The notes beneath the pieces were generated by a model. It was not told where the DNA came from. It searched no databases and saw only the letters and a program-made list of their open reading frames with translations. A stretch of 64,000 nt of DNA from Escherichia phage sutha. The position numbers were made by a program, and so were the translations under genes. Positions 27,775 to 57,878 of the stretch are shown here, piece by piece (position 1 is the first letter of the stretch; each line of letters opens with the position of its first letter). The DNA lies in sequence record PV245934.1, one strand, 5' to 3'.

Positions 27775-27927
27775 TCAATTAGTTGACTTTATTATAATAT
27801 CATCAGACACTTGATTTGTAAACTGGTCTGTGTTATTTTCTTCAAAAATTTTTTCTACGAATTCTTTGAACGACTCACGTTCCTGAGCTACATTATGCTC
27901 GATTACCTTTTCAAGATTATGACTCAT
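27775..27927 (-). CDS. small hypothetical protein (50 aa), below ORF-track cutoff
   Basis: ATG overlaps arn stop (ATGA); open frame MSHNLEKVIEHNVAQERESFKEF... Confidence 0.35.
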   Translation of the reverse strand: MSHNLEKVIEHNVAQERESFKEFVEKIFEENNTDQFTNQVSDDIIIKSTN

Positions 27928-28202
27928 TCGAAATAATCTTCAATTTCGTAATCATGGACGTAAATCATTATAGTTTTTAATACGTCATCAATACTTTTTC
28001 CTGGAGCTGGAATTACGTAAAAATATCCCGCCTTTGAGTTATCTTTATAAGTTCCAACCAAGAAATCATTATTTTCAAGATGTAGTTCTTCAACTAATTC
28101 ATTAACAATTGAGTGGTATAAATTTGGTAGAAACTTATATAGCTTTTCTAGAATATCAATTTTGATTGTATATTGAACTACAGATTGAGAATCAATAATC
28201 AT
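27924..28202 (-). CDS. arn: anti-restriction nuclease Arn (McrBC inhibitor)
   Basis: 92 aa, MIIDSQSVVQYTIKIDILEKLYKFLPNLYHSIVNELVEELH... Confidence 0.85.
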   Translation of the reverse strand: MIIDSQSVVQYTIKIDILEKLYKFLPNLYHSIVNELVEELHLENNDFLVGTYKDNSKAGYFYVIPAPGKSIDDVLKTIMIYVHDYEIEDYFE

Positions 28203-28285: not shown

Positions 28286-28504
28286 TTATGTTTTGCGACT
28301 AAATTGTTCATAGTGCTGAATTACCTCTCTTAAGCATTTGCATGTGAATGAAAACTTTTTAGCTACACCACATTCAAATATATGTTCTCTTAAATCGCGT
28401 GTATCGGTATATCCCATCTCAACAATAAAATGCCGTATTAGATTTTTATCTTTATCATTGAGAGAATTAAAATAATCAGATTTTGAATTAATTTCCCTGG
28501 CCAA
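28286..28504 (-). CDS. hypothetical protein (72 aa), CxxC-containing
   Basis: ORF track. Confidence 0.4.
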   Translation of the reverse strand: MAREINSKSDYFNSLNDKDKNLIRHFIVEMGYTDTRDLREHIFECGVAKKFSFTCKCLREVIQHYEQFSRKT

Positions 28505-28784
28505 ATTGAATCACCTTCAGTTGACGTTTTAACTCTTTTATCATTTCTTCGTTCATCGCAATATAAAGATCGCGTAAAGCAGGTTTTAGCGTTCCATTTA
28601 CTGGAGAACTAAATGGACATACATAATCTTTTCCTACAAGCTTTTTGGTGAATTCCATATCACAGAACTTAAATCCCGGCTCATTGGTATAAATTCCCCA
28701 ATTAGTTGACATCATTTTATTAGCATATTCCAGTGCCTGGATTTGATTCATAATTCCATCAATTTGAAACTTTTTAATATTCAT
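28488..28784 (-). CDS. hypothetical protein (98 aa)
   Basis: ORF track. Confidence 0.4.
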   Translation of the reverse strand: MNIKKFQIDGIMNQIQALEYANKMMSTNWGIYTNEPGFKFCDMEFTKKLVGKDYVCPFSSPVNGTLKPALRDLYIAMNEEMIKELKRQLKVIQFGQGN

Positions 28785-29246
28785 TAGTAAAGGTCCTCAG
28801 AGTAAAGTTCTTTTTCACTACCACCACGTTCAATACGTACTTGTCCAGCGTAAGTTGCAATAATCATTGCTTCTTCACGTGTCCAATAATTACTATATTG
28901 GTCAATAAACCCTTGGTCATCATCACAAACTTGCTGAGTAACTAATTGAGGTTTAACTACATCTAAAACTTCTGCCATATCTTTAGAATAATGACGAGCA
29001 CCTGGAATAATAAGAGTTCGTCCATCTTTTAATTTAAAACGGTTGGCTGCGCAAACAATTCGTCGTTGATACTTTTGATTTTCATCCCAATATGCAGTCT
29101 GCCAACAGATTTCAGGAACTTCATCTAAACATTTTGTTCTGTATATTCACCACCGTAAGAAGCTAATTTAGCAGCCAGACTTTCCGGAGTCTCACGAGAT
29201 AAAGCTTTATCTAACAGAGCTAAACGTTCTTTAAAAGTTTTCATTT
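28784..29246 (-). pseudogene. hypothetical gene apparently split by a 1-nt frameshift (39-aa N-terminal ORF plus start-less downstream frame ending at 28784)
   Basis: ATG at 29244-29246 opens frame that stops at 29127-29129; the -1 frame is open from 29148 through the track ORF 28784-28978 with no start codon for about 50 codons. Confidence 0.4.
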
Positions 29247-29570
29247 AAACCATCCTTTAATACGCTGCCACAAAGTTTTCTGTTGAGCTTTGTTGACGCC
29301 AATTGAGCGAATAACTGGTTGAGATTCCTGGAATTCTTTATAATCAGCAAGGTAAATTTCGTAAGCTGCATCTGTAAATGAACTTATTGCTGCCATAAAA
29401 TTATTGCGAATACCTACTGGAGCATCTTTACTTTCACGAATAATCATGTATTTACCAGTCTTAATCTTTACAATAGTTCCAAGATAAGCTCCATGGTACC
29501 AAATATCCCAACCCTCTTGAGTAGGTTCTGCGCAACGACGAAGTTCATTAACAATTTCTAACTTGTTCAT
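29241..29570 (-). CDS. hypothetical protein (109 aa), motA.1 position
   Basis: ORF track; directly downstream of motA. Confidence 0.45.
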   Translation of the reverse strand: MNKLEIVNELRRCAEPTQEGWDIWYHGAYLGTIVKIKTGKYMIIRESKDAPVGIRNNFMAAISSFTDAAYEIYLADYKEFQESQPVIRSIGVNKAQQKTLWQRIKGWFK

Positions 29571-29580
29571 TATTTATTCC

Positions 29581-30216
29581 TCACAGTTCAGATGCTACAG
29601 TGATTACAGCTTCAATGTTTTCTGCCGAGCGTTTAATGTCAAGATACACATTACCGTTTTTAGCGATTTTACATGACATTCCGATATCAGTAAATTTCTG
29701 AATATGATGTTCCATCATTTTGTATCCAAAAATTCGCATATTTCCATTGTTGTTAATTTCAAAATTACGAATTCCGTGAGTGCGTTTTTCTAAAATAGCG
29801 AGATAGTTACTGCGATAAGTTTCAACCTTTTTAAGAACAAATCCATTTTCATCTAAAAGTTTTAACATGAAGTCTTTATCTTCTTCCATATCAGAAGTAA
29901 TCTCACGAGCTTTACGAGTTGCTCGTTTTTTCAGCAGTTCAGGAGCATTTTCCTGTGCGTATAAAGTTGCTGCATTTGAAATAATATCCTGAGCTTCACC
30001 AGTAATGATTAATCCATCACCAGATTTCTCCACCAGGCCTTTTTTAATCAATACCCCAATATTACTATTAACTACTGCGTTACCTAAATCTGGATGCACC
30101 TCACGAACTTCTGCAGCTGTAATGAAATCTTTCTTAGCAATAGTAATTAAAATCGCAGCAGTTTTTTCATTCAGAACACCGTTAGAAGCTTTGATGATGT
30201 AAGTTACTTTAGACAT
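29581..30216 (-). CDS. motA: middle-transcription activator MotA
   Basis: 211 aa, MSKVTYIIKASNGVLNEKTAAILITIAKKDFITAAEVREVHPDLG... Confidence 0.9.
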   Translation of the reverse strand: MSKVTYIIKASNGVLNEKTAAILITIAKKDFITAAEVREVHPDLGNAVVNSNIGVLIKKGLVEKSGDGLIITGEAQDIISNAATLYAQENAPELLKKRATRKAREITSDMEEDKDFMLKLLDENGFVLKKVETYRSNYLAILEKRTHGIRNFEINNNGNMRIFGYKMMEHHIQKFTDIGMSCKIAKNGNVYLDIKRSAENIEAVITVASEL

Positions 30217-56687: not shown

Positions 56688-57800
56688 TTACTTTCTGGAG
56701 ATTTTAAATTTTTCAACCTTTGAGTTAATCAATTCATCAACTTCAGCTTCAACAATTTCATTACTATCAATAGCACCTAACTGATAAGCACGTTTAATAG
56801 CATCTCGGAATGGTTGATGCTTAAATAAAGGACCCCAGAATGTAGTGCAATTGGTATCTTTTGCACGCCAAGATTTTTCTTCGCGAATCATCTCACCGGT
56901 TTCTTCATCAAGAAATTCACGAGCATACCAACCATTTTTAGGTTTTACTACAAATCCTAATTCAAGAGCCATATCTAACAATCCAGAATAAGGATCGATA
57001 CCACCGTCAAATTTAACATCAATAAAGAATTTACTTTTTTCTTTGACGGTACGAGATTTTTCTACATTTAGAACAAATTGATACCCCTGAAGATCAGAAC
57101 CATCTTTAATCTGGCGCTTACCGATAATGAATACAGTATCAGCCGAATACATTACGCCTGTACCACCTGTCATCACGGTTTTACTAAACATTTCAATTGT
57201 TTCAATTGTATGGTTAACCGCAACACATGGAATGTTTTTAATACTAAAATAAGGAGTAACAATACGGAATAATGACTTCAGTGATTTAGCACGAGTCATA
57301 TCTGCCACAGATTTTTCATTCAAGGCATCTTCCGTTTCTTTCTTAGAAGCCATATTACCAATTGAGTCGATGAATACAATAACCTTTTCACCACGCTCAA
57401 TAGCTTCAAGCTGATTCACCATATCAATTTTCAGCTGTTCAACTGACTGAATTGGCGTATGAATTACTCGTTCCGGGTCAACCCCCATGGATCGCAAATA
57501 AGCTGGAGTAATACCAAATTCGCTATCATAGAATAGACAAACTGCATCAGGATATTTGTTCAAATATGCCGCAACCATAGTCAAAGACATATTTGATTTA
57601 AAGTGTTTAGAAGGCCCTGCGAAAATAGTTAAACCAGACTGCATACCGCCATTAATCGCACCAGAAATAGCAATATTAAGCATTGGAATTTTTGTACGAA
57701 TTACATCCTTTTCATTAAAGAATTTAGATGTAGTCAGTTCAGCAGTCATTTTAGAAGTGGAAGCTTTAATCAAACGGGATTTTAAATCTGCAATAGACAT
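56688..57800 (-). CDS. uvsX: UvsX recombinase (RecA homologue), C-terminally truncated by apparent frameshift
   Basis: MSIADLKSRLIKASTSK..., 370 aa ending ...KVEKFKISRK; shifted frame continues to a stop at about 56622. Confidence 0.85.
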   Translation of the reverse strand: MSIADLKSRLIKASTSKMTAELTTSKFFNEKDVIRTKIPMLNIAISGAINGGMQSGLTIFAGPSKHFKSNMSLTMVAAYLNKYPDAVCLFYDSEFGITPAYLRSMGVDPERVIHTPIQSVEQLKIDMVNQLEAIERGEKVIVFIDSIGNMASKKETEDALNEKSVADMTRAKSLKSLFRIVTPYFSIKNIPCVAVNHTIETIEMFSKTVMTGGTGVMYSADTVFIIGKRQIKDGSDLQGYQFVLNVEKSRTVKEKSKFFIDVKFDGGIDPYSGLLDMALELGFVVKPKNGWYAREFLDEETGEMIREEKSWRAKDTNCTTFWGPLFKHQPFRDAIKRAYQLGAIDSNEIVEAEVDELINSKVEKFKISRK

Positions 57801-57878
57801 TCATTTTTTTCCATAGGCATCATTATATTTTCCTCACTGGTTAAAGATAGAGTAATTATAACACAATAAATTTAGGCA

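Follow-up and report, generated by a model that had tools for sequence, protein, structure and literature searches.

The 64,000-nucleotide stretch of Escherichia phage sutha DNA considered here (sequence record PV245934.1; hereafter the window) is a Tequatrovirus, or T4-like, segment. The best identity to phage records over a 25-kb portion of it is approximately 95%; with a 951-nt query around the site described below, 644 phage records are found, with identities of up to 98.2%. The sequence at 28784-29244 on the minus strand is an ortholog of T4 arn.3 and lies between arn.4 and arn.2. The T4 gene order, asiA - asiA.1 - arn - arn.1 - arn.2 - arn.3 - arn.4 - motA, is identical in the window. 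Synteny with T4 and four relatives is complete over motA - arn.4 - arn.3 - arn.2 - arn.1 - arn - asiA.1 - asiA, all on one strand. The upstream landmark is motA (29581-30216, minus strand, 211 aa), and the downstream landmark is arn (27924-28202, minus strand, 92 aa), the McrBC inhibitor. The arn.4 ortholog (29241-29570, minus strand, 109 aa) belongs to PHROG 1594, and PF26821 is assigned to an identical gene call in contigs of relatives; its stop codon overlaps the arn.3 start (ATGA). The arn.2 ortholog (28488-28784, minus strand, 98 aa; PHROG 1844) has an ATG that overlaps the arn.3 stop (TAATG) and its own GAGGA Shine-Dalgarno sequence 9 nt upstream. The window copy of arn.3 thus resembles that of T4 (T4p260, NP_049871, UniProt Y16D_BPT4; 152 aa) in that it lies downstream of motA, flanked by arn.4 and arn.2, and in its overlapping start/stop junctions, and T4-type Arn.3 is approximately 82-84% identical to the window protein. 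It differs in that one base is missing, which leaves a 39-codon open reading frame and a start-less remainder of 114 codons.

The 5′ fragment of arn.3 (29125-29244, minus strand) begins with the ATG at 29244-29242 and runs for 39 codons to a premature TAG at 29127-29125. It encodes a variable N-terminal module and is 100% identical to amino acids 1-39 of Arn.3 from the relative AV122. The 3′ part (28784-29148, minus strand) is in the -1 frame. This frame opens just after a TGA at 29151-29149, closes with the TAA at 28786-28784 and encodes the core, amino acids 40-153 of the intact protein. The only remnant of the core with a start codon is a 64-aa open reading frame at 28784-28978 (minus strand). 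It starts at Met90 and is without A66, A67, R84 and H85, four of the 10 residues that are invariant in the family. A 31-aa open reading frame that is out of frame (29029-29124, minus strand) begins directly after the premature TAG (TAG ATG); it arises from the frameshift and does not represent a gene. The interval 28979-29230 is the only intragenic hole of at least 120 nt in the window that has no open reading frame of at least 45 aa.

A preliminary description of this DNA had reported the 39-codon frame and the start-less -1 frame, and both are present. The triplets given for the ends of the 39-codon frame were two bases off, the offsets having been counted upward, not downward, from the first base of the codon. 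The -1 frame is open from 29148 to 28784 as described, with 56 rather than about 50 codons devoid of ATG, GTG or TTG before 28978. It had been proposed that the two parts are one gene split by a one-base homopolymer indel, and the relatives examined do carry one contiguous homologue. In JLBYU22, KMB39, PE37, AV122 and ESh25, a single 462-nt coding sequence is found at the position of the split open reading frame. Its product of 153 aa is longer than the fused protein of about 140 aa that had been predicted. The tblastn search of T4-like phages recommended in the preliminary description finds the contiguous homologue, the 153-aa Arn.3, in relatives, and the arrangement it had named as contrary evidence, two small genes with separate starts, occurs in none of those examined.

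By tblastn, Arn.3 of AV122 matches the window in two frames, with 100% identity over amino acids 1-39 and 99% over amino acids 40-153 (E = 1e-83; 3′ HSP at 29128-28787). The match of both pieces to one 153-aa protein is far beyond chance. An intact homologue with 100% identity to the window protein after repair matches PHROG 839 at E = 2e-73, and arn.3 homologues, among them an identical 64-aa open reading frame, are recorded with PF26092 (T4_Y16D). An uninterrupted, start-bearing open reading frame for the whole arn.3 core is absent from the window. The window arn.3 is a member of the family by descent and is not an intact gene as written.

The site of the lesion was located by DNA alignment with three relatives, in which the single gap falls in a T-run of the minus strand that corresponds to the plus-strand A-run at 29127-29129. 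This run is AAA on the plus strand of the window (TTT on the minus strand) and AAAA (TTTT) in relatives, as is also seen in blastn gaps; AAAA is present in JLBYU22, KMB39, PE37, AV122 and ESh25. Where the relatives have AATGTTTTAGATGAA, encoding N V L D E, AATGTTTAGATGAA is found in the window; in codons, AAT GTT TTA GAT (N V L D) in relatives is replaced by AAT GTT TAG. The preliminary description had assigned the indel to the TTTT run at 29132-29135. That run is unchanged in all relatives and lies 3-8 nt from the A-run in which the base is missing. The fused junction derived from it, EQKCLDEV, was likewise mistaken, as relatives read N V L D E across the site. The loss of one base from the four-base run brings a TAG into frame after codon 39 and leaves the conserved 114-aa core in the -1 frame without a start codon. 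The gene as written would be incapable of making functional Arn.3.

The family to which the gene belongs has a modular organization. In the family alignment, residues 1 to about 40 differ between lineages and make up an N-terminal module; PEICWQ marks the start of the conserved domain. Invariant core residues are A66, A67, R84, H85, Q111, G112, F113, D115, R123 and Q135, and the conserved motifs of the core read ...RHYS...DQGFIDQ...TREEA..IA..AGQ...LYSEDLY. The N-terminal module (..RLALLDKALSRETPESLAAKL.AYG.., approximately 40-45 aa) is separable: it is duplicated in tandem in a 203-aa homologue (P0007) and absent from the 113-aa protein of EcS1 (P0035), which starts MSIPEICWQ. In addition, amino acids 1-35 of Arn.3, without the rest of the protein, have a 69% match in a protein of Klebsiella phage Geezett, a siphovirus. 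A profile search yields 3471 family clusters at 50% identity; among the matches listed, the minimal domain is approximately 95 aa, is C-terminal and carries variable N-terminal extensions. No Pfam domain was found in ten long multi-domain members of the family. The AlphaFold2 model of Arn.3 has a mean pLDDT of 87, with values above 90 from residue 45, such that the core is predicted with confidence.

Searches for a function with Arn.3 gave little. The fold has no match among solved structures, and a sequence profile search of the PDB returned only noise. A local copy of Pfam gave only a sub-threshold match to Prok-E2_B (E = 0.06), and a search of NCBIfam gave no match. In BFVD, only uncharacterised phage proteins and weak matches inside 'large polyvalent protein' open reading frames were found. 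PHROG 839 is annotated as 'unknown function'. A faint likeness of the window Arn.3 N-terminus, MKTFKE..., to the capsid-targeting sequence of T4 internal proteins, MKTYQEF..., is not conserved, as T4 Arn.3 begins MNPFIN. The preliminary description spoke of an anti-restriction neighbourhood. This holds as geography, with arn approximately 600 bp away, and does not extend to the labels 'anti-restriction nuclease' on arn.3 homologues, which are an annotation carry-over. A counter-defence role of Arn.3 is a reasonable guess from the gene neighbourhood. According to a 2026 preprint on phage T2 (bioRxiv 10.64898/2026.06.19.733364), the five genes from arn.4 to arn share a single middle transcript, in the order arn.4-arn.3-arn.2-arn.1-arn, and arn.1 to arn.4 have no known functions.

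The deletion is unique to the window sequence. An 80-nt query centred on the site is covered over at least 80% of its length by 103 phage records, and all 25 of the matches listed span 81 nt, i.e. they have the extra base. A full-length match of 100% to this deletion query, which would rank first, was not found in the phage collection. With intact Arn.3, tblastn detects 1556 phage records, and each of 60 rows drawn from the whole ranking is matched in a single piece. The exact deletion 25-mer has no match in viral (IMG/VR), metagenome or genome contigs. The corresponding intact 25-mer is matched exactly by three metagenome contigs and is also missing from the viral and genome contigs, and these two collections are therefore uninformative on the deletion allele. 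The exact 39-aa peptide has as its sole match a copy truncated by a contig end that finishes in TTTT, i.e. is intact.

Frame integrity was assessed throughout the window by translation of every AV122 open reading frame of at least 60 aa over the syntenic 68 kb and comparison with the window. Only arn.3 and uvsX show a frame change within a real gene; a third frame-changing hit is an unannotated antisense open reading frame. Apart from these frameshifts, the window has no nonsense codons in real genes, and it has no Ns. When the window was compared by blastn with AV122, JLBYU22 and ESh25, 18 clean single-base indel sites were found in well-aligned sequence, and 15 of these are shared between the window and one or more relatives. 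The three private sites are in arn.3 (29127), in uvsX (56702) and in a T7-versus-T6 run by the uvsX ATG. Shared indels that could be placed on AV122 gene coordinates (415, 13994, 26823, 30303 and 41931) are all intergenic, and two of the three private ones are coding; the pattern is that of events not yet filtered by selection.

The preliminary description had raised the possibility of systematic homopolymer errors. The window contains 845 runs of four bases, 358 of five, 65 of six and three of seven, and none of the 426 runs of at least five bases carries a coding frameshift. The arn.3 indel is private and lies in a homopolymer, as expected of a homopolymer error, but the marks of a systematic form, many private indels and an enrichment in long runs, are not seen. 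Since only two coding frameshifts are present in 64 kb, both in runs of 3-4 bases, and the other 15 clean indels are shared, any errors are sporadic, not systematic.

The companion frameshift in uvsX (gene at 56688-57800, minus strand) is an extra base at 56702-56705, where the plus strand reads TTTT in the window and TTT in relatives (AAA to AAAA on the minus strand). It lies near the 3′ end of the gene. The conserved acidic C-terminal 27 aa are replaced by ISRK*, and the protein ends ...KVEKFKISRK*. The added base is shared by none of 498 phage records, all at least 95% identical over an 80-nt query, and the truncated UvsX of the window has no exact protein on record, nor has its gp37. A real truncation of uvsX would be expected to cost fitness. 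A third private run-length difference is also at uvsX: a T7 run at 57804-57810, 4 nt upstream of the start codon, is T6 in AV122 and JLBYU22, the only two of the relatives compared that cover the site, and it shifts the spacing between the Shine-Dalgarno sequence and the ATG by one.

Disrupted copies of arn.3 are also present in other assemblies. A metagenome contig of 5x coverage (L015) has a +1 change in a TTTTAAA run. In a human gut metagenome contig (L009:255-730; ERR2019986 k127_93275), two in-frame stops interrupt the N-terminal module. The same copy displays substitutions at conserved core positions (RRIDCAANRF); it possibly represents a true pseudogene, or else the 901-bp contig is of low quality. 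A further type of disruption is found in another T4-like lineage, in two contigs (L013:2400-2780, from ERZ24909966 NODE_4 of 168 kb, and L014) and five more. Here the 5′ 214 nt of arn.3 lie in reverse orientation, with arn.4 on one side and the remaining 3′ part of the gene on the other, and the rearrangement recurs across samples. Short inverted repeats, AAATGAAAAC.TT.AAA and CCGCTTTAAG, flank the inverted segment, from which a chimeric open reading frame of 104 aa results on the opposite strand. An old 99-aa T4 protein in nr, 'unknown [Tequatrovirus T4]' (P0022), begins with the wrong-frame peptide and continues in the Arn.3 frame, and looks like a historical sequencing frameshift in arn.3. 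The 31-aa wrong-frame peptide of the window heads this mis-called protein and another (P0023) as well. All these copies (L015/P0023, L009, L013/P0101 and P0022) are like the window in that arn.3 is interrupted, in two of them where a short A/T run has changed by one base. They differ from it in position and mechanism (+1, nonsense, inversion), and none has the deletion found in the window. On the strength of such assemblies, arn.3 is evidently dispensable in T4-like phages.

Several explanations of the split frame may be weighed. Programmed recoding would join the 39-aa module to the core by a -1 shift near GUU UAG, or would yield the core by termination and reinitiation. The required shift is indeed -1, and the break is almost exactly at the boundary between the variable module and the core, which is where the EcS1 protein starts. 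Likeness to programmed -1 frameshifting in dnaX and in the phage tail chaperone G/GT consists in two overlapping frames, -1 apart, that make up one functional gene. The arn.3 site differs from these and is not a member of the class. The 22-nt frame overlap, ATATACAGAACAAAATGTTTAG, contains no X XXY YYZ heptamer, and a shift at GUU UAG would confront the P-site tRNA-Val with UGU as the -1 codon, to which it could not pair. The 131-nt stretch that spans the site (29030-29160) has a minimum free energy of -19.8 against a shuffle mean of -24.0 (z = +1.28) and is thus less stable than its shuffles. All relatives examined have a plain single open reading frame, and the two-frame layout is not conserved. 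The ATG that follows the TAG is in the wrong frame for reinitiation, the core frame is devoid of start codons over its first 56 codons, and transcriptional slippage would need much longer A/T runs. A programmed frameshift was rejected, being without a heptamer, a stimulatory structure or a conserved arrangement, and recoding of any kind is highly improbable here. The existence of two genuine small genes of 39 and 64 aa, each separately expressed, is even harder to credit. Both frames have an ATG, and gene calls for the 64-aa frame exist in two metagenome contigs, but one of these owes its split to Ns that fill a scaffold gap (L008) and the other to nonsense codons (L009), and neither has the deletion. 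Moreover, the 168 nt between the two open reading frames encode, in the core frame and with 99% protein identity, the most conserved part of the family (...RHYS), which contradicts the two-gene reading, and a two-piece match is shown by none of the 60 records sampled across the 1556.

There remain an error in the consensus sequence and a real, very recent loss of function. The repaired Arn.3 of the window is identical in protein sequence to those of JLBYU22 and ESh25, with no nonsynonymous and 5-7 synonymous codon differences, and shows one nonsynonymous difference each to KMB39, PE37 and AV122. Of the features of a decaying pseudogene, a disabling mutation is present in the form of the one-base deletion, but relaxed selection is not apparent and the gene bears no further lesion. 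The frameshift must thus be an artefact or else of very recent origin. Under the first of these, a sporadic sequencing or assembly error at a short homopolymer would have entered the consensus, and the real phage would carry an intact arn.3. In favour of this, the deletion is private, the coding sequence is otherwise untouched, and uvsX has a private run change of the same kind. Against it, there are only two to three private indels in 64 kb, in runs of 3-4 bases and one of seven, and the private branch of the window is long (at most 98.2% identity to any relative), which allows time for real mutations. So few private indels, with none in coding runs of at least five bases, are unlike the output of a platform with a strong homopolymer bias. 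A real loss would have arisen when replication slippage removed one base, such that a 39-aa peptide is made without the Arn.3 core. It would represent an accessory gene at the first step of loss, for example on hosts that make its presumed counter-defence role superfluous. Frameshifts classically arise by slippage at short runs (the Streisinger model). The assembly is otherwise clean, and the different breaks of arn.3 in other assemblies (L015, L009, L013/L014 and others) make a real knockout quite plausible. On the other hand, relaxed constraint is not seen, the allele is absent from the phage records and contig collections searched, and the no less private frameshift that accompanies it, in the strongly conserved tail of uvsX, is more difficult to regard as a natural mutation that the phage tolerates. 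Because of that twin lesion in a universally conserved tail, and because neither gene shows decay, we lean to error. A sporadic consensus error is considered the most likely cause of the arn.3 deletion, at slightly better than even chances, and the probability of a real loss is put somewhat below one half. It is improbable that a real deletion has set free an N-terminal peptide without the core and thereby offers a snapshot of the modular loss of a widespread accessory domain with no structural match, possibly together with a tail-less UvsX.

Whether the cause is a sequencing slip or a very recent knockout, the locus is an ordinary broken copy of a known gene, one that is small and widely conserved in T4-type phages. 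For annotation, the 39- and 64-aa open reading frames should not be labelled as separate genes; the locus is arn.3, to be corrected or flagged as a frameshifted pseudogene. The existence of a large uncharacterised Arn.3 family with a confidently predicted structure is a property of the family and not of the frameshift in the window. Were the sequence correct, nothing of Arn.3 beyond its first 39 residues would be made; arn.2 keeps its own Shine-Dalgarno sequence, and polarity on it should therefore be limited. A real deletion would add one more case of arn.3 dispensability and would be mildly useful for assigning functions to arn.1-arn.4.
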